Shown here: piece by piece, positions 2,893-46,813 of the stretch
How positions within the stretch are numbered: position 1 is the stretch's first letter
Layout of the letters: every line of letters begins with the position of its first letter
Assembly: GCA_965279515.1 (NCBI GenBank)
Contig: CBDIID010000003.1
Span: forward strand, 4,320,001-4,384,000
Length of the DNA: 64,000 bases
From: Turneriella sp.
GTDB taxonomy: Bacteria > Spirochaetota > Leptospiria > Turneriellales > Turneriellaceae
Reading direction: 5' to 3'
Program-made: the position numbers and the translations under genes
Notes under the pieces: model-generated
Seen by the model: the letters and a program-made list of their open reading frames with translations, nothing else
Databases searched by the model: none
What the model was told of the DNA's origin: nothing

Positions 2893-4635
2893 TCACGACT
2901 GGCCGTAGAGAATATCGAGGGCGATGAGCCGCGCCTTTTCGAGCCGCTCGATTTCGTCATCGATTTTGAGAATTTCCCGCGCAAATTTTCGGCACGTGTC
3001 GAGCGTCAGGGCCTGCAGCATATTCGTGATGACACCGATACGGTGCGTCGGAACGACAAAGTCGCTGAAACCAAAATAACGGAACCAGGCAATCGCCCAC
3101 GGCTCTCCGGCCACTTCACCGCAGATCGTCACGGGCTTTTTGGCAGAGAGCGATTTCAGGACGCGGCAAATGGCCGCAGAGCCGTCACCCAGGAGGGTGC
3201 GGTGCAAAACTTCGTTGTGCTCGCGTTTATCCATGGCGAGTGCACTTAAAAGGTCTGAAGTACCGGCATAAAAAAAATCCACGCGGGTGAGCCAGCGTTC
3301 TGCGGCAAAGACGGCCGCAGGGCTCTCGAGCATGGCGCCGATTTCAATGGCCACCTTTTTCTTACCGGAGTTTATCCCCCTGACGATATCGAGCACCGCG
3401 TTCAGTTCATGGCTTTCCGAAAGGTAGGGAATCAGCAACCGCAGTGGCCGTCTTGTCTCTTGCGCTGCTTTGACAAGGGCCGCTATCTGGCTTTCGAGAA
3501 TTTTTTTCTCGTGCAGCAGAAAACGGATACCTCTCAGGTCCCGGTCGCTTTCGATGAGGGGGCTCTTGAGAAAATTCTTATCTTCGGAGAAGTCGAAGAG
3601 CCTGAACGTGATTTCGGTACCGGCATGTTGGGTCAGCAGTTCTTCGTATTGCCGACCCAGCTGCCGCGTCGAAGGCAACTCGCCCGCTTCGCTTACCTGG
3701 TATTCGGTACGGTAGAGACCGATGCGCTGCTTTGCCTGTTTCTTGTCGTTACCGCTCTGAAGCTCGGAGAGGAAATGCAGGGTACCCGAAAGCTGAATCT
3801 TCTCGCCGGATTTCATCCGCACGGTATCTGACCAGCGTGGTGACGCACTCTCGGTATGCGTTTCGGTGAAACGCGCCGCCCTGCGCGGGTTGAGAACAAT
3901 GTAGCCGATGTCGGCGTCGATGAGTACGGGCAGCGATTTCCGCATACGAAAAAAGCGCGTATCGCTGACCGAGACGCAGGGAATCTGCATTGCGCGCAAC
4001 ATCACCAGTTCGTGTGCGGTGTCGCTGGTTTCGCCGATGACAATACCGCGCACCCCCGCGCGCTTTAAGGCCAGAACTTCGCTGACAGTGAGTTTAGGCG
4101 CGGCGATAATGGAAACACCTTCGGGCAGGGTCAGGTCTTGCTGCAGCCCGAGAAAATAGAGAATACGCCGCTTCATATCGCTCATGTCTTTGATGAAGTG
4201 CCGGTTCTGGCTGCCGTCGAATTTTTGTCCCGAAGGCTCGAAGGCAAATTGCCGCGAAACCATGCCAATGACTGCGCCCAGGGCCGCGGCGCCCGTTGCA
4301 CCGGTCTCGAAAATCCGGTTCTTGATTTCACCCAGAAAGTAGGGGTCTTCAAGGGTCATGATATGGGACTCGAGCACATTGATGGCATCGTCAATGGCAT
4401 GTATTTCGCCGGGATTTTTGCTGCGCCGGTCGAGCATCATCTTCTTTTCGGCGGCGAGTTGCAGCTGCGCCGACCTGAGCGCACTCTTAAAGTGGCGGAA
4501 CTCCGCGCGCGGGTTTGCGGCCGGCTTTTCAACCGCAGAAAAGCGTTCACGGCGGAACTCCGCCATGATGCCCCGCACCCGGCCGGGATAGATTGCTTTT
4601 GCCCTGAGATGGCGCATATCGCGGTCTGCCGGCAT
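2893..4635 (-). CDS. PEP-protein phosphotransferase (PTS enzyme I)-like protein, divergent
   Basis: SDTAHELV (phospho-His motif position), IGLYRTEY, RGIRF, GAMLESPAAV, GTSDL and ICGE in enzyme I order. Confidence 0.8.
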   Translation of the reverse strand: MPADRDMRHLRAKAIYPGRVRGIMAEFRRERFSAVEKPAANPRAEFRHFKSALRSAQLQLAAEKKMMLDRRSKNPGEIHAIDDAINVLESHIMTLEDPYFLGEIKNRIFETGATGAAALGAVIGMVSRQFAFEPSGQKFDGSQNRHFIKDMSDMKRRILYFLGLQQDLTLPEGVSIIAAPKLTVSEVLALKRAGVRGIVIGETSDTAHELVMLRAMQIPCVSVSDTRFFRMRKSLPVLIDADIGYIVLNPRRAARFTETHTESASPRWSDTVRMKSGEKIQLSGTLHFLSELQSGNDKKQAKQRIGLYRTEYQVSEAGELPSTRQLGRQYEELLTQHAGTEITFRLFDFSEDKNFLKSPLIESDRDLRGIRFLLHEKKILESQIAALVKAAQETRRPLRLLIPYLSESHELNAVLDIVRGINSGKKKVAIEIGAMLESPAAVFAAERWLTRVDFFYAGTSDLLSALAMDKREHNEVLHRTLLGDGSAAICRVLKSLSAKKPVTICGEVAGEPWAIAWFRYFGFSDFVVPTHRIGVITNMLQALTLDTCRKFAREILKIDDEIERLEKARLIALDILYGQS

Positions 4636-4734
4636 TCGTGTAATTCGAACTCGGCGCTACAAGAATTAACAATAAAGCCGTCGCGCAGCCAAAAAGCACT
4701 CATAGAAGAGACATATTCCGGCCGATATTCAACC

Positions 4735-5745
4735 ATGTCCCGGGCATTCCGCCTCATTATTGCCTGCGCCGCCGTCACCTCGCTGGGGGCGGCCTCATGG
4801 CGCAACAACAAGGTCGACCAGCACGGCAATGCGACCGAAAACTTCAGTTCCAGCGGCCTGAAACTCTATTTGAATTCCCACAAGCTGCGCTTTGCAAAAA
4901 ACGAAGAGGTCGTCTTCAACGTTTCCCTGGTCAATGAAGGGGCTTACCCGATCACGATCTACCTGCACGAAAATCCGCTGCGCAATTTTACGATTATCGC
5001 CCGCGACCACGAGGGCCGGTCCCTCAATGTAAAAGAAGAGATGTATTACCGGGGGACATCCGACTGGCGCGACCCGCACCACACAAAGTATACCGGTGAA
5101 ACCTACCCGATGCGTAAGATGATCATCCATGCGGGTGAAAAGTACGAGAAACGCATTAAACTCGCGGACTATGTCGACTGGGAGGATTTCTCCCCGAAGC
5201 TGAAGAATCTCGACATTACCGCGCATTTTTACCCCAACCCCCTGCAGGCAGAGCGCTACTTTTTGCCTTCGGCATCGTCGCTGCAGCTGATCTATGACCG
5301 TAGCCGCGAGGTCCTGAAAGAAAAGGATAACCTGATGGATGCAGCGACCGATACGCTGCATATCAGCGCGCGCGAGATCGTCTACCTGATGCTGTCAGCC
5401 GAATACACGAAAAACTGGTCGCAGTACTTTAAATACGTTTCTTTAAAGGATATCATCCGCGACTACCCGGAGTTCTCACGCCTGTACGCGAACGAAGCCG
5501 GGGAAGACCAGATGAGCGCGCTGGCGGAGTTCAGAAAATACCTGAGCGGCCGCGGTTCGCATAAGCTCATTAAATTCCGCGTGCTGGCCGGCGAAAGCCG
5601 CGAGGGCGGTGATACCGCGCAGGTGCGCGTGCGGGCGCGCCGCGACGTCGAGGGTTTTGAGCGCGATTACCTGACGACATATTATTTGACGAAGCGGGAT
5701 ACCCTGTGGCAGATTACCGGTATCGAATCGAGGTTGGCAGATTGA
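4735..5745 (+). CDS. Exported hypothetical protein, 336 aa
   Basis: ATG at 4735 is followed by the signal-like MSRAFRLIIACAAVTSLGA. The upstream part of the 535-aa ORF is antisense to the ptsI-like gene. Ends 42 bp before fliM. Confidence 0.75.
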   Translation: MSRAFRLIIACAAVTSLGAASWRNNKVDQHGNATENFSSSGLKLYLNSHKLRFAKNEEVVFNVSLVNEGAYPITIYLHENPLRNFTIIARDHEGRSLNVKEEMYYRGTSDWRDPHHTKYTGETYPMRKMIIHAGEKYEKRIKLADYVDWEDFSPKLKNLDITAHFYPNPLQAERYFLPSASSLQLIYDRSREVLKEKDNLMDAATDTLHISAREIVYLMLSAEYTKNWSQYFKYVSLKDIIRDYPEFSRLYANEAGEDQMSALAEFRKYLSGRGSHKLIKFRVLAGESREGGDTAQVRVRARRDVEGFERDYLTTYYLTKRDTLWQITGIESRLAD

Positions 5746-5787: not shown

Positions 5788-6816
5788 ATGACTGATATTC
5801 TCTCGCAAGACGAAATAGACCAGTTACTCTCGGCGATCTCGTCCGGTGACGCGCAGCAAGAAGATTTTTCTGCGACACAGGCCGAACAAAAGAAAGTCAA
5901 GATCTACGACTTTAAACGTCCGGATAAGTTCAGTAAGGACCAGATCCGTACGGTCCAGATGATGCATGAAACCTTTGCGCGTCTGACGACAACTGCGCTC
6001 TCGGCAAAATTGCGTGCGATGGTTTCGGTGCACGTTCAGTCGGTGGATCAGCTGACTTATGAAGAATTCATCCGTTCGATCCCGAACCCAACGACCCTGT
6101 CACTCATCAACATGGACCCGTTAAAGGGGTCGGCGATTCTTGAGGTCGACCCTTCGATCACGTTCACGATCATCGACCGCCTCTTCGGTGGTGCCGGCGA
6201 GCATGCAAAGCTGACCCGCGAACTCACCGATATCGAGATGTCAGTCGTCGAAGGTATCATCGTTCATATTCTGGGTAACCTGCGTGAAGCCTGGTCGACG
6301 GTTATCGACCTGCGCCCACGCCTCGGCACCATTGAGACAAACCCGCAGTTCGCGCAGATCGTTCCACCGAACGAGATGGTGATGCTGATTACGCTCGAGA
6401 CGAAGATTGGTGAATCAGAAGGGATGATGAATCTTTGTATTCCCTATATTACGATCGAGCCGATCATTCAGAAACTTTCGGCGCAGTATTGGTTCTCGTC
6501 GATCCGCCGCGGCGAAAGCGACGTCAACCGCACAATGATCCAAAGCCGGCTTGATAATGTTCAGGTGCAGATTTCTGTTGAAATTGGTACGGTGAACCTC
6601 GGCTTCAAGGATATCATGAACCTGAAGGTCGGCAATATCATCAAGATGCCGAAGACGACGGTGCGTGAAGAATTTACCTTTAAAGTCGAAGAGCGCGCGA
6701 AATTCAAATGCCGTCCGGGCCGAATCGGTTCGCGTCTCGCGGTGCAGATCGGCGAAGCGGTAGTCGATACGCCGGACGAACTCTTGATCGGTACACGCAG
6801 CGAAGAAGAAGGATAA
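5788..6816 (+). CDS. fliM: Flagellar motor switch protein FliM
   Basis: MTDILSQDEIDQLL N-terminus, YDFKRPDKFSKDQIR, DRLFGG, IETNPQF, C-terminal SpoA-like domain. Confidence 0.97.
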   Translation: MTDILSQDEIDQLLSAISSGDAQQEDFSATQAEQKKVKIYDFKRPDKFSKDQIRTVQMMHETFARLTTTALSAKLRAMVSVHVQSVDQLTYEEFIRSIPNPTTLSLINMDPLKGSAILEVDPSITFTIIDRLFGGAGEHAKLTRELTDIEMSVVEGIIVHILGNLREAWSTVIDLRPRLGTIETNPQFAQIVPPNEMVMLITLETKIGESEGMMNLCIPYITIEPIIQKLSAQYWFSSIRRGESDVNRTMIQSRLDNVQVQISVEIGTVNLGFKDIMNLKVGNIIKMPKTTVREEFTFKVEERAKFKCRPGRIGSRLAVQIGEAVVDTPDELLIGTRSEEEG

Positions 6817-29636: not shown

Positions 29637-31652
29637 TTAGCCGTGGATAGATTTAAGCTGCTCGATGAGCGATAGCTGTATATACTGGTTGAGCGCCCTG
29701 GTATCCGCTGCATCGTTGCCGAATTTGCGCACAATCTGCGTCGCGGCATTGCCGATCTCGTTTGAGAGAAAGCTTTGCGTGATCTCGGGCAATTTACGCG
29801 TCATCGAATAGAGGCGTTTCGCGCGGGTCGAAACCTCGCTCTCTACCCGCTCGGTGAGTTGTTTGCGTGCATCGCCGAGTTTGATATTCCATAACTCCGC
29901 GAATTTGCGGATCATTTCGGGTGCGGTTTTTTCGCCGATGAGCCGGGTCTCGACCATCGCCAGGATACGGTGCCAGTCTGTGTCTTTAAGCAGGCCTGCG
30001 CCACGCGCAGCCGGCTCTTCTTCTTTTTCCGGTGCAGGCGCGGCAGCCGTACTGATGAGTCCGAACAGGCTTGCGAGAAAACGCAGCAGAGGGTAGCGGT
30101 AGAGGAACGGCAGTTCGGCACGTACACGGCCATAGATCTCGCGGCGGTTGAGTTCGAGCAACAGGTGTATTGGTTTGAAGATCACGCGGTTACCTATAAT
30201 GAAGTAGGTCTCCTGCAGGTTGGTGCTCACGGGGTGGCGGGTGACGACGTGGAAGGCATTGATGATTGCCTGTGGGTTGAGCAGCAACGCCGAAAAAACC
30301 GGTTCCTGGTTTTTCACATACTTGGCCACATCTTCGGCGAAAAATTCGTCGAATTCCATCGCCGAGCGGCTTTCGTTCTTCAGCATCAGCGCATACCACA
30401 TCTTGCGGAAACGCGTGAGCAGTTCAGTGCGCACGCGCTTGCGTTCCGATTCGAAAAAGATCAGCAACGCCTCGCGGTGAATAAAAAATTCCTCTTCGTG
30501 CAGCCGGAATTTCAGCAGCGCCGGCAATAGCTCGCGCTCTTCGGCCTGGAAGACCGAGAATTCGGCGAGCATTTCCTGCACGACGTTTTCAATCTCGTTT
30601 GAGTTGAGAATCGAAGCCATGACTTCGAGTCCCGAAGTTCCTTTTACGACTTTCTGTATGATGTCTGTGCGGTTGAGCAGGGCAGGATAATCCGCCATCA
30701 TGTTGAGAAGTTTTAAGGCATTCTCGCGCACCTTGTCGCGGTTGTTTTTTTCGGATTCGAGCCAGGCTTCATAACCCTTGAATGCCTCGACAATACGCGC
30801 CGCCTGGATCAGGGTCAGCATGCCCTTCTTGTCTTTATCGATCGTAAAATATGCAGCGAGCCGGTTTGCGAGATTCACAAAGTAGAGCGGTATCTCCGCT
30901 TCGTTGTGTGAAAGAATATGCGTGATACGTTCGATGCTCGTCGATTTCTGCGGCATGATGCTCATCATATCTTTGACGAGGTCTTCGCCGAGGCGGTTCT
31001 GCGCCGCGGTCATGATCACGTTTTTCAGTTTCATGAGACTGACTTCCATGAGGATGTCGATCGTCGGCGCTGTCACGGCGACAGGCATGGGCACATCCGT
31101 AAAGCGGAGCAGAATGATGCGTTTTTCTTCTTTCAGACGATGGTTTGAACCGCTGGCGATTTCCTGGACCGGGACTTCGATATGGTTTTCGGGCAGAAGG
31201 TAACGGCGCAGCATATCGTCATCGGGGAAGGGCAATGCCGAATTCGACTGCATCTGCCCGTAATAATCGTCGATAAAGAGCGACGCCGGGTCCGTGAGGC
31301 GGATACGCAGGATCTCCCCGCCGTCGACCTCGATCTCTATGAATTTTTTGTCGCGCAGCCCGTAAGCCGTCTGCGTGATGAGGCGGCGCACGTTGGGCAG
31401 CGTTTTGAGTTTCTGGATATTTTCATCATTGCCGCGGCTGAGCAGGGAGTCGGTGACGCGCGCCGCTGAAAAAGAAATCGTATCATTCTCCACGGCATAG
31501 CGCGCATACGATTCGAGTACGATGAGTTCGTCTTCCAGCAGGGGAATTGCGCGTGCAAACTCCTTGAATTGAATCTCGTCCAGATCTACGTAAAATGGCT
31601 TAAAGTCTGAGGCCACTGTTTCTATTTTCGACACATTGGGCCCAAAATTCAA
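29637..31652 (-). CDS. Hypothetical mostly helical cytoplasmic protein, 671 aa
   Basis: Long ORF that fits tightly between sppA and algH-like on the same strand. TTG start. No recognised motif. Confidence 0.75.
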   Translation of the reverse strand: MNFGPNVSKIETVASDFKPFYVDLDEIQFKEFARAIPLLEDELIVLESYARYAVENDTISFSAARVTDSLLSRGNDENIQKLKTLPNVRRLITQTAYGLRDKKFIEIEVDGGEILRIRLTDPASLFIDDYYGQMQSNSALPFPDDDMLRRYLLPENHIEVPVQEIASGSNHRLKEEKRIILLRFTDVPMPVAVTAPTIDILMEVSLMKLKNVIMTAAQNRLGEDLVKDMMSIMPQKSTSIERITHILSHNEAEIPLYFVNLANRLAAYFTIDKDKKGMLTLIQAARIVEAFKGYEAWLESEKNNRDKVRENALKLLNMMADYPALLNRTDIIQKVVKGTSGLEVMASILNSNEIENVVQEMLAEFSVFQAEERELLPALLKFRLHEEEFFIHREALLIFFESERKRVRTELLTRFRKMWYALMLKNESRSAMEFDEFFAEDVAKYVKNQEPVFSALLLNPQAIINAFHVVTRHPVSTNLQETYFIIGNRVIFKPIHLLLELNRREIYGRVRAELPFLYRYPLLRFLASLFGLISTAAAPAPEKEEEPAARGAGLLKDTDWHRILAMVETRLIGEKTAPEMIRKFAELWNIKLGDARKQLTERVESEVSTRAKRLYSMTRKLPEITQSFLSNEIGNAATQIVRKFGNDAADTRALNQYIQLSLIEQLKSIHG

Positions 31653-36678: not shown

Positions 36679-38283
36679 TTACGATTTGAACAACAGCTCA
36701 AACGGGATCGCCTGAATATGCGGCCGTGCATAGATTTTATGCTGGTAGATCGGCCGGCGGTCTTCGTCCGTATACGATTTTCCTGCCTGTTTTTGCAGCA
36801 TGCGAGAAAGCCGCCATGCATCGCCGGCCTCTTTTTGTCTAAGCACGCTGACGAAATGCCCGTGAAAGGCTTCGGTAGAAAAATCCTGCGCTTCCATAAT
36901 CTCGCGCAGCGTCTTCCGGGTGAAATCCCTGATCTCGGCGGCAAAGCTGTCGCCGTGCAGGTTTTGCAGCCGGGTGTAATTCATGAGACTGGTGACAATC
37001 ACCGCGTAGGGTTCGTCAGATTTCGCCAGGCTGTCTTCGCAGGCGGTGATAAAATTCCGGATTGCCATGACGGGGTTATCCGCATGTTTTAATGCCGATG
37101 TGGCGTGGTCCCTGAGGCGTGAGACGTGGTTCTGCATCACGTAGTGATCGATCATCGAGCCCAGTGCTGTGACCTTTTCTTTTTCGCCGTCGGCGATAAA
37201 CGCCACGGCAAGAATTTCCTGGCGATGCAGTACTTTGTGCGCAAAAACCTGGCGGTATTTGGCGAGAAAAGAAAAACCTTCCGAGCTTTCGAAATCCGCT
37301 GCGGCAAATGAGGTCTGCCCGTTTTTAATTTTCTCGATGATGGCATCGACGAGATTGACTTCGAGGTGCGCCACCTGTTCGGCCGGAAAGCCCGTGGCAA
37401 AATGCCGCCTCAGGAAAAAATCTTCGCGCGTCATGAGCAGCAGCGCGGTGTCGGGAAAATGGCGGGTCAGCTCGGCCTCGAGCACGTCTTTCAGCGATTC
37501 GTGGTTGTCGAGCTTGCCGAGGTTTGTGACAAACTCTGCCGCGTAATCCTGGAACATCTGGGCACGGCTGAGCTTTTGGTTTTTTTCTTCGGCGCCCGAA
37601 ACCAGTTTCAGCTGGGCTTCCATAGCGCCGAGCAGCTCGCCGCAGATTTTCAGATAGAAGAGGTCGTCTGAGCTTAAGAGCGATGCGCCCTGCGGCGGGT
37701 TGATGAGAATGACACCGCGGAGTTCCTCATAACGGAATACCGGCGCGGCATAACGTGCGCCCAGCGAACCGAGAAATTTGACTTCGCGCTCGGAAAATGA
37801 CGCCAGGAAGTCGTCCACGAGAATTGCTTTCTTCTCTTTTGCCAGCGCCTCGCAGAGTTTATTGTTTGCGGCAAAGGAATGGTCTGAAGCGAGAGTGAAG
37901 CCGAGCGCGTATTTGAGTTCCATGCGCGTGTCGTCTTCCATGAAGAGAGCGATGTATTTGGTGCCGAGCTGCGCCATCAGCGAGTAGGCGATGACCTGCC
38001 AGAGATCGGCCGCCGAGCGCACCTGGCCAAATTCCTTGTAGATTTCAATCAGGTTCAGCATCGAATCGAGGCGCGATTTATGCCCCATGGTTTCGGGGAA
38101 ATCAGCCGCGGCAACGACGGCTTTCTTCATTTCGGGGCGCGCAGCCTCGCCCTGCGGTGCGCTTGCCTCAGGCGGATGGCTCTTGGGTTTGTTGAGGTCG
38201 GGCTTGAGTTCGAGGCCTAAATCGACGCCCTGCGAAGATCCAACGGCTTTAGAATAGTCGCTGGCCCGCTCGCGGAGTCCCAT
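36679..38283 (-). CDS. GAF-domain protein with C-terminal degenerate GGDEF-like domain
   Basis: GAF-like AAPVFRYEELRGVILI..DDLFYL, a second GAF-like segment, then YAVIVTSLMNY..LQNLHG...DFSTEAFHGHFVSVL in GGDEF-fold spacing. Confidence 0.62.
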   Translation of the reverse strand: MGLRERASDYSKAVGSSQGVDLGLELKPDLNKPKSHPPEASAPQGEAARPEMKKAVVAAADFPETMGHKSRLDSMLNLIEIYKEFGQVRSAADLWQVIAYSLMAQLGTKYIALFMEDDTRMELKYALGFTLASDHSFAANNKLCEALAKEKKAILVDDFLASFSEREVKFLGSLGARYAAPVFRYEELRGVILINPPQGASLLSSDDLFYLKICGELLGAMEAQLKLVSGAEEKNQKLSRAQMFQDYAAEFVTNLGKLDNHESLKDVLEAELTRHFPDTALLLMTREDFFLRRHFATGFPAEQVAHLEVNLVDAIIEKIKNGQTSFAAADFESSEGFSFLAKYRQVFAHKVLHRQEILAVAFIADGEKEKVTALGSMIDHYVMQNHVSRLRDHATSALKHADNPVMAIRNFITACEDSLAKSDEPYAVIVTSLMNYTRLQNLHGDSFAAEIRDFTRKTLREIMEAQDFSTEAFHGHFVSVLRQKEAGDAWRLSRMLQKQAGKSYTDEDRRPIYQHKIYARPHIQAIPFELLFKS

Positions 38284-38315
38284 GGCTTAAGCTCCCCTGA
38301 CGGGGAGGTTATGTT

Positions 38316-38349
38316 TTAAGGGGGTCATGCGACCCCCTTAATAACCCCG
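38316..38349. repeat. Palindromic element copy 2
   Basis: TTAAGGGGGTC-ATGC-GACCCCCTTAA then TAACCCCG. Matches the 6824-6854 architecture. Confidence 0.7.
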
Positions 38350-38368
38350 CAAAAATTTGCCGGCATGC

Positions 38369-40246
38369 TTATAATCCCAGTTTATCCATAATTTTCTGGT
38401 ACATTTTAAAGTACTCTGACTGCGCAAACTTCTCGATCACGTCGTCCGGCAGTTCACCGAGCAGGTTGTCGAGGTACGTCATCACCGATTTTAATTCTTC
38501 GGTATCCGGTGCCGGCGCTGCAGCATCGGCGTGCGCGTCTTCGTGGATGAGTGTGGCTGCATCGAGGTCTTCTTCGAATACGGTGGCGGGTTTATCCGTG
38601 TTGTCGGCGAGGCTGGGTTCGTCGGCACCCGTATCCATATGCGAGAGCGGCATCATCGGCGCTTCGGGCGTGACTTCGCGTGAGTCAGCGACGATGCCGT
38701 CGAGTTCGTCGGAAGAAAGGGCTATCGGGCCGTCTTCGTCGCCGTCTGCCGGTACGGCGGGCGTGCCTGTGCTGAGCTCAGTCGAAGCATCTTCCATGTG
38801 GTCGACATCTGCATAGCGCGAATCAATCGCCATGGGGTCAGGCGTGGAAGCGTCCATGCCTTCGGCCGCGGCATCCATGCCTTCGGGTGGGAGTTCCGCC
38901 AGCGGCGCCACTTCCGGAGCATCTTCTATTTCCGCCGTCGCGGCGATGCCGTCGAGTTCGTCGGCCGAGAGGGCAATGGGTTCATCCGCATCGCTGTCAA
39001 AAAAGTCGTCGCTGCCGGCATGAGCGTGGTCATCGGCTGCGGCTGCTTGCCCCGCGTCCATATCGGCCGCAGGAACTTCTTCGGCGTCCATGAGAATGCC
39101 GTCGAGCTCTTCGTTGGAAAGTGCGATGGGTTCGTCGTCTTCGACCTCGACCATGCCGTCGGATGGCAGGTCGGCGAGGGCGACTTCATCCGTCTGTTTC
39201 GGCGCCTCTTCTTCGGGCGCGCTGCTTAAAATGCCGTCGAGTTCTTCATCGGAAAGCGTGATCGGTTCGTCTTCATCGCTGTCAAAAAATCCGGCGCTGT
39301 CGTTGGCAGCGGGCGAAGAAGTCTCTTCAAGTGTGGGCGAACCATCGTCGATCATCGTGATCGCCGGATCATCGTCGAGAGTCAGCACCTCGTCTTCATC
39401 GTTGACGGGTAAGAGCTCGGGCGCGCCGGTATGCGTTTCAGCATGGCCTGCTTCAGCGTCGGCTAAAATATTATCGAGTTCGTCGTCTGAGAGCGCAATC
39501 GGTTCTTCATCCTCGCCAAAATCTTCGGCGATCGAGGGTGGCGGCGGCGGTGCCATCGCCGGAGAACTGCTGACCGGGGCGGGGCGGGGTGCTGCTGCCG
39601 GGGAGGCAGGCGTGTGCGCGCCTTCTTCTTCTAATAAAATTTCATCGAGATCTTCGTCTGATAGCGCAATCGGCAATTCATCGTCGTCGAAGTTATGTTC
39701 GGCTTCCGGCATTGGCGGAGCGTCATAGGGATCGGCCTCTGGCATTGCCGGCGTCGCAGATGCGCTTTCATGTTCTACCGGAAAATCGGGATGGAATTCT
39801 TCTTCTGTCGCCGGCCCCATTTCCAGGATGCCATCGAGCTCTTCACTCGAAAGCGCGATTGGGCCGTCGTCTTCATCACTGTGTTCGGCCAGGGTCTGAT
39901 CATGGCTTACGGGCGCGACTTCAGCAGGCGCGTCGAGGGGATCTATATCGTCGGAAGATAAAATATCGTCAATGTAAGCATCTTCGGGATGTACCTGCGG
40001 CATGGGCGCCATCGCATGGCTCTCGTCGATATCCTCAAGAGTGGGTGCGGTAATCGTCTCTGCCTGTGCTTGCTCTGAAGCTGCGTGGTGCATTTCGTCT
40101 TCGTGCTGTGTCAGCTGCGGATTTTCTTTTGAGGAATCGTAAAGTACGACAAAGGATTTATCGTCAGATTCCGTGACGGCCAAATCGCCGTGGATGTCGA
40201 ATTCGTCGTCTTTGATTTTGGTCTTTTCAGCCACAGCTTCAGCCAT
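38369..40246 (-). CDS. Highly acidic, probably disordered 625-aa repeat protein with a compact C-terminal helical domain
   Basis: Start set at ATG 40246 (MAEAVAEK). Seven P-I-[AT]-L-S-x-[ED]-[ED]-L-D-x-I repeats. C-terminus ELKSVMTYLDNLLGELPDDVIEKFAQSEYF. Confidence 0.85.
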   Translation of the reverse strand: MAEAVAEKTKIKDDEFDIHGDLAVTESDDKSFVVLYDSSKENPQLTQHEDEMHHAASEQAQAETITAPTLEDIDESHAMAPMPQVHPEDAYIDDILSSDDIDPLDAPAEVAPVSHDQTLAEHSDEDDGPIALSSEELDGILEMGPATEEEFHPDFPVEHESASATPAMPEADPYDAPPMPEAEHNFDDDELPIALSDEDLDEILLEEEGAHTPASPAAAPRPAPVSSSPAMAPPPPPSIAEDFGEDEEPIALSDDELDNILADAEAGHAETHTGAPELLPVNDEDEVLTLDDDPAITMIDDGSPTLEETSSPAANDSAGFFDSDEDEPITLSDEELDGILSSAPEEEAPKQTDEVALADLPSDGMVEVEDDEPIALSNEELDGILMDAEEVPAADMDAGQAAAADDHAHAGSDDFFDSDADEPIALSADELDGIAATAEIEDAPEVAPLAELPPEGMDAAAEGMDASTPDPMAIDSRYADVDHMEDASTELSTGTPAVPADGDEDGPIALSSDELDGIVADSREVTPEAPMMPLSHMDTGADEPSLADNTDKPATVFEEDLDAATLIHEDAHADAAAPAPDTEELKSVMTYLDNLLGELPDDVIEKFAQSEYFKMYQKIMDKLGL

Positions 40247-40447
40247 ATTATATACCCGATTTATTATCGGTTTTGAGGCGAGCAATCTTAAATTGACTAC
40301 CAGATAAGGTTCAAAATCGGAAACATTGGTGCGCTGAACTCGTATGAATGGCGAGGCGTCCGTTTTCCCGGACGGGATATTGATCCGGGAGGGAGTGTAT
40401 GGTTGGCTTGGGTGTCGGGAAAATGAGTAACAAGTGTTTACAAACAA

Positions 40448-40462: not shown

Positions 40463-40537
40463 CTTTTTTGGCCCAATAACCGGCACGGCTGTCATTTTCT
40501 ATTACGGTGTGTTACGGCCTTGAAGAAAGGGGTATGC

Positions 40538-43500
40538 GTGTTTAATATACAAATGTTTACTAAATTAAGACTATTGCGGTTATCCAGCTTCTTGATGATT
40601 TCATTGAGTTGGGTCGCCTGTAAATCCAGTGATCTGGAATTTCAGCAGTTCAAACCCAAATCAGAGACAGCGCTCTCTGATATCTTTAATAACACACCCG
40701 CAATCCGTGCCGCGTTCACAACGATCGATCCCCACGAGTTCAATGTCCGTTTAGATAATTTAATCCATACCGACCCGGTGATGGGGGTGAAATCGATGCA
40801 CGCCCTCGGCGCCCTTTCGCATACCCGACCGGCCCTGCCTCAGCTGGCAGATTCCGTTTCTTCTGTCATTGATCGTTTTGCCCGCTATTACCAGGCCACA
40901 CCTGCACGGCAGACTGAATATAATGCCGCGATCGATCTTGTGAACACCCTGCTCGACGTTGATCCCAAGGCGATCACCGATGGCTCCAAGCTGGGCGCGC
41001 AGGCCATCCGTTATATAGGCGAAAGCCAGGCGCTTTTTCCCCTCAGCGTCACACACCCTGATGTCAATCGCCTGAACGAATACCATTTCCCGCAACTGAC
41101 AACCTGGCAGACCTGCGATGATCCGGGTTCAGTATTCCTCAGTGGACGTCCCGAATCCGACGTAACCGATTTAGAGGCACGCGATTCTTTATGGGCACTC
41201 TTTGATATCCTGCGTACTGGTTTTTGTATCTATGCTAACCGGTCGGGCCCGCGCATTGAGATTTTGGGCACGGGTGGTTCTGGTGCGACAGCCGAGGCTG
41301 TCATCAATGAGAGTGTTATCACAGGCATCAATGTGACAAATCCTGGCAGTGGTTATCCTGCCGGCACAACCGTCGTCAATATCGATTCAACGCCCGGCCC
41401 AGGTTCAGGGGCGACAGCGACGGCAAACGTTGTCGGTGGTCAGGTCGTCAGCATCACCCTCAATGCGGGTGGCTCTGCCTACGTGCCGAAGAGCGATAAT
41501 ACACCGGGTGCCTACATGCGTAATGCCACCGCCGTGCTTAAAAACAGCGGCGATATAGAGCTGCGCATCAGAAACATGATCTATGACCTCGAGAACAAGC
41601 TTTCCGACTACTCGACCAGCGAGCACCGCATTGCCGACTGGACGGTGAATAATTCCAATATTGTGTTCCAGTCGCAGATCGCCGTGACGGATTACCTCAT
41701 CGACTATGTCTATCCGATCACACGGAAAGATTTTGTCTTTAATCAGGGTAAAGAAGTTCTCGACCGCGAAGCGGAACACCTTTCGATGAAGAACCCGGGT
41801 GGCGCTTCTGGTACCAACGATGAATACCTCACTGAATGGCTGCTGAAATCTCTTTATGCAGATGCACCCAAGATCGATGACCTTGAGAATTTTTCCAATA
41901 TTGATACAACGAGCAAGCTTTATGTATTTGGTAAAGATATTGTGGAGAACGGCACTTACGGTATTAATAGTGTAACTTCACGCTACTCTAAAGCTCTGCT
42001 GAAGCAACACTTGTGGGGACCATCTTCATATACGAACGTAGCGACCCCGCCCACAACCTTCAACTTTTCCGGTTTGATTTACAGCGACGGTACTCTTCCA
42101 GGGGCCGGATATATCAGTCGCCTAGCGCTCGTAAAATCCACGCAAAACTATCTGAATCCTTTCCGTCAGTTTATGGCGCCGCGCGTCAATTCGCTCGTCA
42201 CTGTGCCGTCGACGTACAACAATGAGCTCTACCTCGAATCAGCGCTCAAGAATTTTTATTTCCATATTTTAGAGCGTTATTACGATCAAGGCACTAACCA
42301 GTGGGCGCTGACCACGGAAGACGCGGCGACATTGTTTCCGACCGATCCCGACCCGGCAGACAGAAATTTGCAGAGCTATATCGGTCAGATGCAGTACTCG
42401 ATGCGCAACATGGCAGTGCTGGATAAATTTGGTAAGCTGAACCCTTCTGCCCCCGGATACAATGCCGTCACTGATGCGGGGTATGACCAGCAACGTGTCC
42501 CGTATTTGACATCTTTCCTCTACACGATTGCAGCAGCAAACGGGTATGTTGATCATATCAATGCGCCCGGACAGTTAACCCTGCAAACCTGCTTGAAAGC
42601 CATGGGTAGTCCCTTGGCCACGAATGGCACGATCAGCATTTCTGCGCTCGCAGGCCTTATCAACATGACGGTTGCGGTCACAAATGCGCCGGATCCATTT
42701 CCCGGTTTTCACGCAGCCTCACGGCAAGATCAACCGGCTTCCACGTCGTTGAATATGTTTGCTTTCGAACTCATCAGCCCGGGTCGTTTTATTCCACGTA
42801 CTGATACAGAGACTTACCCGGGTGATCTGGTCAACGGTAAGTTGCGCGGCATCTTTTCGCAACACCAGGGTGATATTGAATCGACCAATTTGAAAACTTC
42901 AGAATGGATGGTTTCAGAGTTTTCTCTCAGCGCGTGGGAAGGTTACGGTCCCTATTCTGTGAAAGGTAAGGCTGCAAATGGTAGCGTCGTTAAGTATGAG
43001 AATGATTATTATACAGATGGTTACCGCGCTGCACTAGGGACTTCAGTTCCGCTGTTTGGAACCCCTGACTCGTACTCAGAAGTAGCGATGGGTGAGAACG
43101 GTGGTGATGGTGGCGGTACATTGGGAGCCGGACGGAATGGCTCTTATCACATGTACGAGATGATTTATCGTCCGATGTCGAGCAGCGATCCATGCTGGAC
43201 CCAGGCACAAGGCCCCACATACGGCTATGCGCGTTATGGTTGGTTACGCCAGACGAATAATCCTAACTATTCTAATCTAACCTCGGTGACCAACAGCTGT
43301 GATACCAGCACCATGGTTCGCCTTGACTTTGATACGCGAGACGAGGCAATCCGTGCCAACGTCGAATGGGTACTCAAATACAAAAAGTTTATCTTCGTTA
43401 TTCCTATTTCAAGTTCCTCATCGGCTACCCTGGGGCAGGGCGCTTCTTTTGCCGTATTTTCGACGATCAACGCAAACGGCCTTTGGGGCGTTACCACCGC

Positions 43501-46500
43501 ACACCGTGCTGGTGGCAGCCAAACTGATAACGGCCGTTGGAATAAATCGGCAGCTTCGATGGGCGCGGACGGCGACGGTTATGTGTCAAACTCTGGCAAT
43601 GGGTTTATTGGAGAATGCACCAACGGTGCAGGTGCGTGCCCGGGAACTCGCTCAAATGTTCCGATACATAAAACTACGCGTTTTGGCGTTACATCCTTTG
43701 TCGCCGGCGATTCTATGGTGCTCCTCGACATAACGATGCGCACCTTTGGTTTCGCAATTAACTGGATTGTCGACCTCTGGCAACAAATCTGGGATAGTTT
43801 AGGCAATGGCCCGGTAACACCGGCGATGATCAAAGATAACTTTGATTCCGTACTGACCTTGGCCGAGGCCGTCTATGTAAAGGCCAACCTCATGACTGGC
43901 GCCTTTACGGGCCTTGAACAAAACATGGCAAAATTCCGGTTGTTCTATGACACCTATTTTCCCACGGATGATACGACCTGCACAGCTGGTGTATTGACGA
44001 ACACAGCCAATGGCAGTGCTGATCTCTTTGAAAATTATCTCAATGGTTGTGGTGTAACCGCGCGCGATTTGCCACCCGTACCGAAGGTAAATCCGAACAC
44101 TTCGACCTGCAATGAATTTACCCAAGCCGGGTGTTTTCAATATCCAAAGGCCTATGATTCTGCGGGTGCAGTACTTGCCGGCGCAGCAGGTTGGTACTCT
44201 TACAAGGGGCCAAGCGATGGCAAACTCACGGGTATGTTGACACCGTTGATCATGCTGTTCGGAACAATGCACGAAGACGGTGCTGTGATGAAGGTGACTT
44301 CGTACCCAAATGCGACACCTTTGGCCGCGGGTGAAAACCGCGACAACGTTACGATCCGCAACTTCTGCAGCTCCGGCTATCCCGGCTGCGTAACTGCAAA
44401 TTTAGGCTATCGCGTCGAATTGACCACACTCTTTAATGCCCTTGCTTCTCTAAATGAAAGTGTGATGTATAATAACGGACAAACTTGCGATCCCTATGGG
44501 CACCAGCCGGGCGCAACCCCTTGCAATAACTTCCCTGTTTATAACACCAATGCGCTGACCAATATTGTCACCGAGTCGGCTGTTGGCCTCAGAAATGGTC
44601 TTGTACCAAAAATGACCAATAATAAATATGCAAATATTGCATATGTTGACCCCCTCGTCCGCGACATAGAAGGTCTGATTGCAGATAACGTGCGCAAGGC
44701 CGAGGATAACTTTACCATAACGACGGGCACGAATGCAGGTGCCAGTGTGCTTAAAAACAAAGACAGGTTAAGGTATCTTGCAACCAAAAATGCAGTTAAT
44801 CCGACCTTTACGGCTAAGACTATCGTCAATGGCTATGTCAGCGCAGATCGCCACGGTCTTGAGATCGGCGATAAAGTTTACCTGACAGGTGCGGTGCCGG
44901 CGGGGATTACCCCCAATGAGCCGAACTATTATTATGTTGTCGCTCCTGTCACGGCAGATACCTTCAGGCTGAGCACCACATTTGGTGGGGGTGCCATGGC
45001 TCTGGGGCTCGCTGCATCATACAGTGTCAATCAGGCGCTCTTCAAAACAAACCGTTTTAATGCGAGCGTGAACGGTACGGCGCTCAATGGAATTCCAATC
45101 AATATGATGAAGGAATTTATCGGCTACCTGCGCACCCTGACTTCTGACGCGGAAATTGTCGCGGCGATCAAAGCGGCGATTCCGATGTTGAACAATTACC
45201 TGACTTATGTGCAGGGGAGCACATCGCAAATTACTTTGACGAATCAGGATATTGATCACATTGTTGATTTCATCAAAGATACGAACTCGAGCGGAAGCAA
45301 CTCCGTCGACAGCTTTCTGGATATGCTGGTTTCAACTAAGATGGATGACCTCAATACGCTCCGAAGCTTTAACTTTGATCAGTTCAAGACTTTGGGGTCG
45401 TACCAGGCGATCTTTGACGACATGAATGACAAGATCAATAAGTATTTCGAAATCAATATCAAGAAAGATATTCTTTATAGTTCATTGATGCTCGGTGAGC
45501 CCACTTGCCCTGGTGGTGCTGCGAATGGTTTCTATGACCATAACAAAGATGGCGTATGGAATCCCGGGACTTTCACTTTCATCTCTGCAGCCTATGTCGG
45601 CGCATCGACCTTTACAGATACGGCTAACGTGAATGGCACTTGTACCATAAACACGCAGGTGCCCAATATTTACGATAAAGATTATTACATGCTCGATATG
45701 GGTGGCGTGGGGCGCAATATCGAAAAGGCGGTGAATACGCTGACAGTTGCAGATGTCGACGGGAAGCTGGATTGGCTCTACGGCCGAACACTCACGGGCT
45801 CGCCGACAGATGTGATTCAGGTTACCGATGCCGCGAATCAGCCTAACCCTGCTACAGGCAAGACAGAATGTTACATTAAGTCTACTGGTTCAGGTGGTGG
45901 CATTAACTTTGACCGGGAGCTCAAAGCCTATAAAAATTTACTGCTCTGCGACGTGTATAATAAGAAGATTGCCGAACCGCACTATGATCGCAACGGCAAT
46001 AATATCATTGAAGCCGGTGAGTATACAGATATCAATGGCAACGGTCAATATGACGATGAGAACGTGACTGTTGCCGCGGATATCATGAATTTGCGTAAAA
46101 CGCTTCATTATTATCTCGAAGACGTTTTTATGCCTAAGTACGCTGAATATATTCAGCCGGATCCTTTGAGCCCGAGTAAGAATTATGTCCACTTCGGCGC
46201 CAAGGCACTTGAGGACCTGCTTGCTCCAACGATTTGCGATTCACAAGGGTTGAATTGCGCAACGAATTCAAATTACCTGACAGCCAAGTTGCTGGATGCA
46301 CGTACAACCTTCTATGCGAGCACGAACTTTACTTCTGCTGAGTTAAAATCGGTGAAGAATGTTGTGGGTAATTTCCTCTATGATACCGATACCGGTACCT
46401 ACACCGACCTGTTCGTTCGCATAGGGCCGTCGCTCGTGACGTTTCTGCGGGAGTTCCAGGGCGATTATAATGATTTGCTGACCATGGGGCTCGAAGGTTT

Positions 46501-46813
46501 CAAACCCAATGGGTTTATGACTTACTTCTCGACAAACCTGAAGAACAAGGCCCCGTATACATCGCTCGACATACTCACGGATGTCAGAACGCTCTTTAAC
46601 ACGCAGACGATGCGCTGTTATCCGGGAATCACAGGGGAATATCCTGGTGGGCCGCTGTATTGCAAGAAATACAAGGCACAGGATACTTTCTGGGGACAAT
46701 TTGGTCTGTTGATGGATCAGTTCTCGACGGCGGCGTATAATAAATATAAAGCACAATGGCAGTCGCAGATGGCGTCACCTTACTACTCGCGCCTCGTTTC
46801 GATTTTCGAATGA
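40538..46813 (+). CDS. Giant (~2,090 aa) predicted lipoprotein of unknown function
   Basis: Uninterrupted ORF. AAAGGGG RBS before GTG 40538 (alternative ATG 40553). Lipobox-like SWVAC. Many Cys pairs and Dx[DN]xxG loops. Confidence 0.85.
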   Translation: MFNIQMFTKLRLLRLSSFLMISLSWVACKSSDLEFQQFKPKSETALSDIFNNTPAIRAAFTTIDPHEFNVRLDNLIHTDPVMGVKSMHALGALSHTRPALPQLADSVSSVIDRFARYYQATPARQTEYNAAIDLVNTLLDVDPKAITDGSKLGAQAIRYIGESQALFPLSVTHPDVNRLNEYHFPQLTTWQTCDDPGSVFLSGRPESDVTDLEARDSLWALFDILRTGFCIYANRSGPRIEILGTGGSGATAEAVINESVITGINVTNPGSGYPAGTTVVNIDSTPGPGSGATATANVVGGQVVSITLNAGGSAYVPKSDNTPGAYMRNATAVLKNSGDIELRIRNMIYDLENKLSDYSTSEHRIADWTVNNSNIVFQSQIAVTDYLIDYVYPITRKDFVFNQGKEVLDREAEHLSMKNPGGASGTNDEYLTEWLLKSLYADAPKIDDLENFSNIDTTSKLYVFGKDIVENGTYGINSVTSRYSKALLKQHLWGPSSYTNVATPPTTFNFSGLIYSDGTLPGAGYISRLALVKSTQNYLNPFRQFMAPRVNSLVTVPSTYNNELYLESALKNFYFHILERYYDQGTNQWALTTEDAATLFPTDPDPADRNLQSYIGQMQYSMRNMAVLDKFGKLNPSAPGYNAVTDAGYDQQRVPYLTSFLYTIAAANGYVDHINAPGQLTLQTCLKAMGSPLATNGTISISALAGLINMTVAVTNAPDPFPGFHAASRQDQPASTSLNMFAFELISPGRFIPRTDTETYPGDLVNGKLRGIFSQHQGDIESTNLKTSEWMVSEFSLSAWEGYGPYSVKGKAANGSVVKYENDYYTDGYRAALGTSVPLFGTPDSYSEVAMGENGGDGGGTLGAGRNGSYHMYEMIYRPMSSSDPCWTQAQGPTYGYARYGWLRQTNNPNYSNLTSVTNSCDTSTMVRLDFDTRDEAIRANVEWVLKYKKFIFVIPISSSSSATLGQGASFAVFSTINANGLWGVTTAHRAGGSQTDNGRWNKSAASMGADGDGYVSNSGNGFIGECTNGAGACPGTRSNVPIHKTTRFGVTSFVAGDSMVLLDITMRTFGFAINWIVDLWQQIWDSLGNGPVTPAMIKDNFDSVLTLAEAVYVKANLMTGAFTGLEQNMAKFRLFYDTYFPTDDTTCTAGVLTNTANGSADLFENYLNGCGVTARDLPPVPKVNPNTSTCNEFTQAGCFQYPKAYDSAGAVLAGAAGWYSYKGPSDGKLTGMLTPLIMLFGTMHEDGAVMKVTSYPNATPLAAGENRDNVTIRNFCSSGYPGCVTANLGYRVELTTLFNALASLNESVMYNNGQTCDPYGHQPGATPCNNFPVYNTNALTNIVTESAVGLRNGLVPKMTNNKYANIAYVDPLVRDIEGLIADNVRKAEDNFTITTGTNAGASVLKNKDRLRYLATKNAVNPTFTAKTIVNGYVSADRHGLEIGDKVYLTGAVPAGITPNEPNYYYVVAPVTADTFRLSTTFGGGAMALGLAASYSVNQALFKTNRFNASVNGTALNGIPINMMKEFIGYLRTLTSDAEIVAAIKAAIPMLNNYLTYVQGSTSQITLTNQDIDHIVDFIKDTNSSGSNSVDSFLDMLVSTKMDDLNTLRSFNFDQFKTLGSYQAIFDDMNDKINKYFEINIKKDILYSSLMLGEPTCPGGAANGFYDHNKDGVWNPGTFTFISAAYVGASTFTDTANVNGTCTINTQVPNIYDKDYYMLDMGGVGRNIEKAVNTLTVADVDGKLDWLYGRTLTGSPTDVIQVTDAANQPNPATGKTECYIKSTGSGGGINFDRELKAYKNLLLCDVYNKKIAEPHYDRNGNNIIEAGEYTDINGNGQYDDENVTVAADIMNLRKTLHYYLEDVFMPKYAEYIQPDPLSPSKNYVHFGAKALEDLLAPTICDSQGLNCATNSNYLTAKLLDARTTFYASTNFTSAELKSVKNVVGNFLYDTDTGTYTDLFVRIGPSLVTFLREFQGDYNDLLTMGLEGFKPNGFMTYFSTNLKNKAPYTSLDILTDVRTLFNTQTMRCYPGITGEYPGGPLYCKKYKAQDTFWGQFGLLMDQFSTAAYNKYKAQWQSQMASPYYSRLVSIFE

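Follow-up and report, generated by a model that had tools for sequence, protein, structure and literature searches.

The window analysed here, a stretch of 64,000 nucleotides of Turneriella sp. DNA, encodes an acidic protein in which a short conserved motif occurs seven times in front of a small C-terminal domain predicted to be helical, and its sequence places it in a catalogued, uncharacterised family, TP_0179 (PF27359). Judged from gene content, the family tracks flagella and not chemoreceptors. The reading favoured here, with about an even chance of being right, is that the protein would be a cytoplasmic hub of the flagellar system, PopZ-like or like the cytoplasmic part of HubP. The features concerned are collected in Table 1.

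Table 1. Positions in the window of the TP_0179-family gene, its motifs and the related genes
Feature	Residues (aa)	Positions	Strand	Remarks
TP_0179-family (PF27359) gene		38369..40246	minus	acidic, probably disordered protein, 625 aa
C-terminal TP_0179 domain		38372..38524	minus	three predicted helices, mean pLDDT 91
Motif copy 1	129-141	39824..39862	minus	
Motif copy 2	192-204	39635..39673	minus	weakest copy, 16 bits vs 34-41
Motif copy 3	249-261	39464..39502	minus	
Motif copy 4	328-340	39227..39265	minus	upstream GFF-acidic extension, also in single-copy homologues
Motif copy 5	373-385	39092..39130	minus	
Motif copy 6	423-435	38942..38980	minus	FF upstream
Motif copy 7	507-519	38690..38728	minus	predicted extended segment, then helix after conserved Ser, pLDDT ~81 over core
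Extra FliM-peptide-like site DILSSDDIDP	94-107	39926..39967	minus	absent from the count of the initial annotation
Conserved downstream gene		36679..38283	minus	534 aa; MGL-R-x-R-A segment at the N-terminus, one or more GAF regions, GGDEF-like domain without catalytic signature
fliM		5788..6816	plus	N-terminal CheY-binding peptide
Frame holding the gene before fliM, of unknown function		4138..5745	plus	42% identical to the relative's gene between the GAF gene and fliM

Composition of the protein and its C-terminal domain

The 625-aa product starts at the ATG at 40246. A longer frame opening with TTG at 40447 was unsupported, since the close homologues (P0004 and P0014) share the ATG-type start; the closest homologues carry the name Turneriella. 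Asp and Glu make up 28% of the residues, Lys and Arg 2.4% and Pro 9.6%, which gives a pI of 4.05. Neither a hydrophobic or membrane segment nor a signal peptide was found by inspection or with Pfam and NCBIfam, no polar cue or membrane anchor was visible in the sequence, and the repeat region was assigned to no Pfam, NCBIfam or Atlas family. The acidic protein with seven motif copies that the initial annotation had described was confirmed by ORF, composition and motif matrix.

No RNA holder was listed at the locus, and the scan for promoters and terminators around the gene stayed at about chance level. The 85-bp gap to the downstream gene (38284-38368) contains two short inverted repeats, one of which scored as terminator-like on the plus strand. 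Divergent from the TP_0179 gene lies a plus-strand gene (40520-46813) for a probably exported protein of 2097 aa with no Pfam match, and its homologues occupy the same position in several Turneriella loci. Another protein of the window, of 671 aa and encoded on the minus strand (29637-31652), had zero Pfam matches as well.

The last ~45 residues of the 625-aa protein matched PF27359, named TP_0179 in the Atlas, in the precomputed assignments, and the family profile matched the T. pallidum protein annotated Y179_TREPA with an E of 1.8e-16. The C-terminus had been proposed to be compact and helical, which was borne out by the model (Table 1). That the scaffold was undescribed held in so far as no function was found for the family, but the Pfam entry already exists. 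Further members are ABZ96938.1 of the saprophyte Leptospira biflexa and AFM13474.1 of Turneriella parva. The C-terminal domain and the motif are common to the Turneriella protein and T. pallidum TP0179, while the motif is present in seven copies in the former and in one in the latter. The Treponema forms also have an N-terminal YGVWVK-type segment and a likely coiled-coil segment, both of which the Turneriella protein lacks; among the Treponema-type homologues (L125, L126 and L103-L111) the YGVWVK-type motif near the N-terminus is conserved, and the coiled-coil segment comes before the shared motif.

When the model of the C-terminal domain was compared with known folds, the best VIA match had a Z of 4.9 (rmsd 3.5, 50 aligned), which falls inside the background for small helical models, and Foldseek gave no match at E 0.001. 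Sequence searches of the PDB returned chance-level matches only, including one to the FliG middle domain (E 1.3) that was discounted. The domain, often in tandem, was also observed in unrelated proteins (P0107, P0109, P0113, P0119, P0143 and P0189), some of them with membrane segments, and two clusters of such proteins have archaeal members (Thermoplasmatota and Altiarchaeales).

The repeated motif and the FliM peptide

A motif matrix trained on the family found seven copies in the Turneriella protein, zero in each of 200 shuffles and zero in the other frames of at least 100 aa of the Turneriella genome. For the 258 homologues (a deduplicated set, with rows holding masked stretches left out) there were 1227 copies, 702 of them distinct, against 0 after one shuffle of each sequence. 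The consensus is [EG]-P-I-[ATS]-L-[ST]-x-[DE]-E-L-x-x-I-L, frequently with FF and acidic residues ahead of it, and the signature that belongs to the repeat itself is I-[ATS]-L-S-x-x-E-L-x-x-I. Conservation over the 702 instances was 95% for I/V, 99% for L, 98% for S/T, 98% for E, 98% for the second L and 98% for I/L/V.

The homologues range from ~300 to >2000 aa and hold 0 to 15 copies each; near-complete proteins from Turneriella have 6-7 and those from named Leptospira 4-15. Their linkers drift between conserved motifs. This pattern, proposed beforehand as a check on homologues found through the C-terminus, was recovered. Since the motif is kept inside linkers that are free in length and sequence, it is best read as a binding element. 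Among the 23 homologues from outside the class, 13 had one motif, three had 2-3 and seven had none; the single copy was seen in T. pallidum TP0179 and in T. denticola. Going by these homologues, the motif is ancient and phylum-wide, with usually one copy outside the class. The AlphaFold model of the last motif has an extended segment followed by a helix directly after the conserved Ser, and the motif is predicted to consist of a short extended I-x-L segment and then a Ser-capped amphipathic helix.

The FliM of the same window starts with ILSQDEIDQLL, and the core of the repeat had been said to parallel this N-terminus. An explanation built on this likeness, which we hold to be unlikely, is that the repeats act as copies of the FliM peptide, with phosphorylated CheY or other single-domain receivers as the proteins that they tether or buffer. 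Profile-profile alignment of the repeat with FliM/FliY peptides covered 16 columns with a probability of 59% (pairwise E 9e-5), and the loose pattern LS..E[LI]D.[IL]L was limited to FliM, a FliY-like protein and the TP_0179 protein among 2414 stop-to-stop frames of at least 300 aa in the genome. The Asp of FliM, reported to pair with K119 of CheY through a salt bridge (10.1101/781468), is kept in all seven Turneriella copies, and the eighth site at residues 94-107 is closer still: it was the best site of the protein on the FliM/FliY peptide matrix with 16.9 bits, where FliM reached 47.9 and the FliY-like protein 26.6. Sites like it were present, by eye, in several order-level homologues.

Against such docking, none of the 702 instances fitted LSQxEIDxLL and 147 fitted its loose form; LSQ occurred in four, and ID at the two critical positions in none. 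Change of the Ile-Asp pair of FliM was reported to abolish switching and the binding of the CheY-like CleA (PMC5677366). The Ile is always replaced in the repeat, with Leu in 98%, the Asp is kept in 258/702 (~37%), and neither Q nor I of LSQxEIDxLL is found in any of the seven Turneriella copies. FliM/FliY peptides scored from -15.5 to -0.9 on the repeat matrix, where the repeats had a median of 32, and the repeats had a median of 1.2 on the FliM matrix. All 11 FliM/FliY peptides keep L, S, Q, I, L and L, a count that is partly circular, as they were picked by a pattern requiring these residues.

Both elements share the helix start L-S-x-x-E-[IL]-x-x-[LI]-L, whose L-S-x-x-E-L core would be common (L[ST]..EL..[IL] was present in 16 of the 2414 frames). 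The repeat differs from the FliM peptide in the invariant I/V two residues before LS, often with FF, which has no counterpart in FliM, and in being internal and multiple where the FliM/FliY peptide is N-terminal. The parallel stood as far as the alignment and the shared loose pattern go, and failed at the lost Q and I and the incompletely kept Asp. By sequence comparison, the repeat does resemble the FliM peptide, though in part only, and we take it for another binding surface that makes use of a widespread helix start.

Distribution and gene neighbourhood in the Spirochaetota

The C-terminal domain was detected in 337 of 401 Spirochaetota genomes, in nearly all of them as a single copy, and in 60 of 61 relatives; the same 401 genomes contained FliM in 386 cases and CheW in 380. 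A wider profile, run at E 0.001 on 40 hand-picked, mostly negative genomes, recovered the domain in 11/11 genomes of family f21 and 2/2 of family f57. From gene content, we take family f47 to be Borrelia-like, f60 Sphaerochaeta-like and f21 Brachyspira-like.

Nine genomes had a full-length FliM and no CheW, and TP_0179 was kept in seven of them. Chemoreceptors were found in none of the five of these seven that were tested, and a FlhF-type match was present in all seven, with a profile that separates FlhF only imperfectly from FtsY/Ffh. The motif was counted 14 times in G021, 6 times in G027, 8 times in G032 and once each in G101 and G092; G136 had one motif in an adjoining frame, and G117 was masked. 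Retention of TP_0179 in genomes without CheW or receptors, which speaks against CheY docking, indicates that the protein is independent of receptor arrays.

The FliM peptide was intact in all CheW-less genomes checked, and G021, G027 and G032 hold CheY-like receivers flanked by CheX, beside genes for adenylate-cyclase-like proteins or CheW-less kinases (L133, G032:C2:43629-46955; L134, G021:C5:1333262-1336588; L142 and L137 in G027). The use of the CheW-less genomes as a refutation of CheY binding was dropped, as CheY-like and CheX genes are retained there, and CheY docking keeps some weight because the receptor-less lineages retain CheY-like proteins. The small-genome flagellated Leptospirae without CheW and chemoreceptors possibly run a receptor-free motor-switching circuit.

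The wider profile did not find TP_0179 in any of the eight FliM-less, CheW-less genomes of family f60, where one match came at E 0.04; this absence is one lineage and essentially one event. A FlhF-type match was present in one f60 genome (G385). Five genomes without a FliM match (G191, G234, G260, G314 and G383) had FlhF-type matches and were not counted as non-flagellated. G392, without FliM and CheW, has as homologue a 210-aa frame without motif. This genome belongs to family f49 (G165, G240 and G392; 1.5-1.7 Mb), in which the FliM match is weak or missing, CheW is absent and TP_0179 is shrunken or undetected, and which we read as flagellar decay in progress.

Family f47, bipolarly flagellated and positive for FliM, FlhF and CheW, had the domain in 0/16 genomes, with 0/7 for the wider profile and 0/3 for a motif profile that found 3/3 controls. 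Thus flagellation in spirochaetes does not as such require TP_0179, and this absence counts against the hub reading and the CheY reading alike. The motif was weak or missing in 7 of the 23 out-of-class homologues and in the Brachyspira-like giants, all of which come from FliM-positive genomes except G392. The Brachyspira-like homologues (G156, G176, G192 and G196; L167-L170 and L178) lie in open frames 2100-3000 aa long whose repeats are of another kind, and fliM and fliY lie close to the homologue in the three regions examined (G156, G176 and G212).

Among 114 TP_0179 loci, some of which repeat a genome, fliM was present in 22 and cheA or cheW in none, the latter being a further point against CheY docking. 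In order-level relatives fliM lies two to three genes downstream of the TP_0179 gene. The gene before fliM in the window is similar to the relative's gene in between (Table 1), which indicates that the TP_0179-fliM cluster was split by ~30 kb in the Turneriella genome. The TP_0179 gene has fliS and fapA as neighbours in another lineage and fliL-fliM-fliY in a third.

Most Leptospira loci have the gene after the ATP synthase operon and Treponema has it near a divIC-like gene, neither of them flagellar, and these are the two best-sampled groups. Such neighbours would fit a role outside the flagellum, as a scaffold of cell shape or division or as an acidic chaperone or spacer, its motif engaging its own C-terminal domain or a housekeeping complex, with loss in one non-flagellated lineage for other reasons. 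The presence of the C-terminal domain in unrelated proteins, the archaeal clusters included, and the lack of detected family members in flagellated f47 point the same way. Flagellar neighbours in three separate lineages and the loss of the motif in FliM-less G392 argue against it, and the single-chain model of the last motif with the C-terminal domain (pTM 0.26) gave no hint of mutual docking, which is weak evidence. On balance a non-flagellar role seems rather doubtful.

Directly downstream of TP_0179, a gene with an MGL-type start was found in 87 of 103 loci (9/23 outside the class), a set biased to Leptospirae in which certain genomes are represented by more than one locus. The product of this gene in Leptospirae and some other lineages is a GAF and GGDEF-like protein without catalytic signature, and G[GA][DE]E[FL] was absent from all 43 homologues. 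The MGL-[LR]-x-[RK]-A segment at its N-terminus (38100-38283, minus strand; L021-L126) is the most widely conserved part of the protein, with SLLxKA as the Leptospira counterpart, and is possibly an amphipathic targeting helix, to judge from its residues. LIC_11247 of L. interrogans was reported to be a degenerate GGDEF protein (PMC12943098), and from gene order it would be the same gene; LIC11246/LA2773 was listed as a conserved hypothetical protein (PMC2387172). An apparent fusion of TP_0179 with the downstream gene (P0232, 1195 aa) was a single Logan sequence and was discounted as evidence.

This gene order and the missing signature would suit a dedicated scaffold of the downstream protein, with the motif or the C-terminal domain binding the inactive GGDEF or GAF, and a precedent is given by the inactive GGDEF of PdeB, reported to bind HubP's C-terminal domain (PMC9061725). 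The partner is not universal, however: some genomes retain the motif with no such neighbour beside it and no clear orthologue found, as in G027 with no match and the f16 genomes with partial matches (47-73 bits vs 225-428 for clear orthologues). For the downstream protein of T. pallidum the profile match spans 13 residues only, and homology was seen for the N-terminus. When the downstream protein was modelled in complex with the last motif and C-terminal domain (score 0.03, mark 0.32), this gave no evidence either way. A scaffold dedicated to this partner thus looks improbable.

A candidate flagellar hub and its comparison with known systems

The initial annotation had offered either a tether or sponge for CheY-like receivers or a PopZ/FimV-like hub; the disordered scaffold, the repeated motifs and the conserved C-terminus were upheld and the hub became the best reading, but CheY docking was weakened. 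For a hub of the flagellar system, each motif would fold on binding a client, the acidic linkers would space the copies, and the copy number would tune avidity. The C-terminal domain would drive oligomerisation or serve as the anchor of the chain, as its tandem copies in archaeal proteins suggest. In spirochaetes the flagella are inserted at both cell poles, and the hub would be located there. The client would be a flagellar positioning or regulatory protein, with FlhG as the leading candidate, which is a guess. FlhG, with a locus at G000:C3:2695400-2696251, is chosen because it was also reported to bind the FliM N-terminus (PMC12826062), which would explain the partial likeness to FliM without CheY.

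A fuller version is possible, and we would put it forward only tentatively: TP_0179 would organise the poles in most flagellated spirochaetes, as a hub without membrane in which the motif was expanded from one copy to up to 15 in Leptospirae as a FliM mimic capturing FlhG (or CheY), with the C-terminal domain assembling the hub and the dead-GGDEF partner linking it to signalling.

No function for TP0179 was found in the open texts available, where it appears as a hypothetical gene with a recombinant region in treponemal genomics, and no description of the motif was found in the open literature, which is what the search covered. The Leptospira Tn-seq literature held nothing specific to the gene. 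Among the matches listed from the T. pallidum two-hybrid supplements (PMC2386257), TP0177 was found and TP0179, TP0178 and TP0366 were not. The family is already known through its Pfam entry, and its function is here inferred. According to a 2026 paper (PMC13712777), the positioning of FlhG in spirochaetes is an open question and no HubP homologue is known in Borrelia. For Leptospira, Treponema and most other lineages TP_0179, usually present once, would offer a candidate hub whose motif of 14-16 residues is well delimited and could be tested as a peptide, and it would leave the question of FlhG positioning unanswered for Borrelia, where the family was not found.

Two known systems can be compared. 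PopZ, of the Alphaproteobacteria, has a helical C-terminal part, and its family is presumably the one called DUF2497 in Pfam. It was reported to assemble itself into an organiser of the pole, to have a recognition feature at the N-terminus and to bind CpdR, a response regulator (PMC11519897); receivers can thus be bound by hubs, a point in favour of CheY docking. The homologues of G101 and G092, with one motif near the N-terminus, an acidic linker and a helical C-terminus, have a PopZ-like layout. A short recognition helix, an acidic Pro-containing linker, a helical C-terminal domain and the lack of a membrane anchor are common to PopZ and TP_0179, in layout only. The TP_0179 protein differs from PopZ in its multiple recognition motifs, and the Turneriella protein gave no match to DUF2497 at E 0.01 or 10.

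HubP and FimV are polar landmarks of Gammaproteobacteria. HubP was reported to have imperfect acidic repeats in variable number and a small conserved C-terminal domain (PMC12918733), and HubP/FimV and TP_0179 have in common a long acidic region, imperfect repeats of variable number and such a C-terminal domain. No LysM domain, membrane segment or FimV C-terminal TPR domain was found in the Turneriella protein with Pfam and NCBIfam. JGI gives the label 'FimV' to 6 of 47 close homologues, which their composition has probably brought about artefactually. By the tests run, the Turneriella protein is not a homologue of PopZ, HubP or FimV, but it may work like them.
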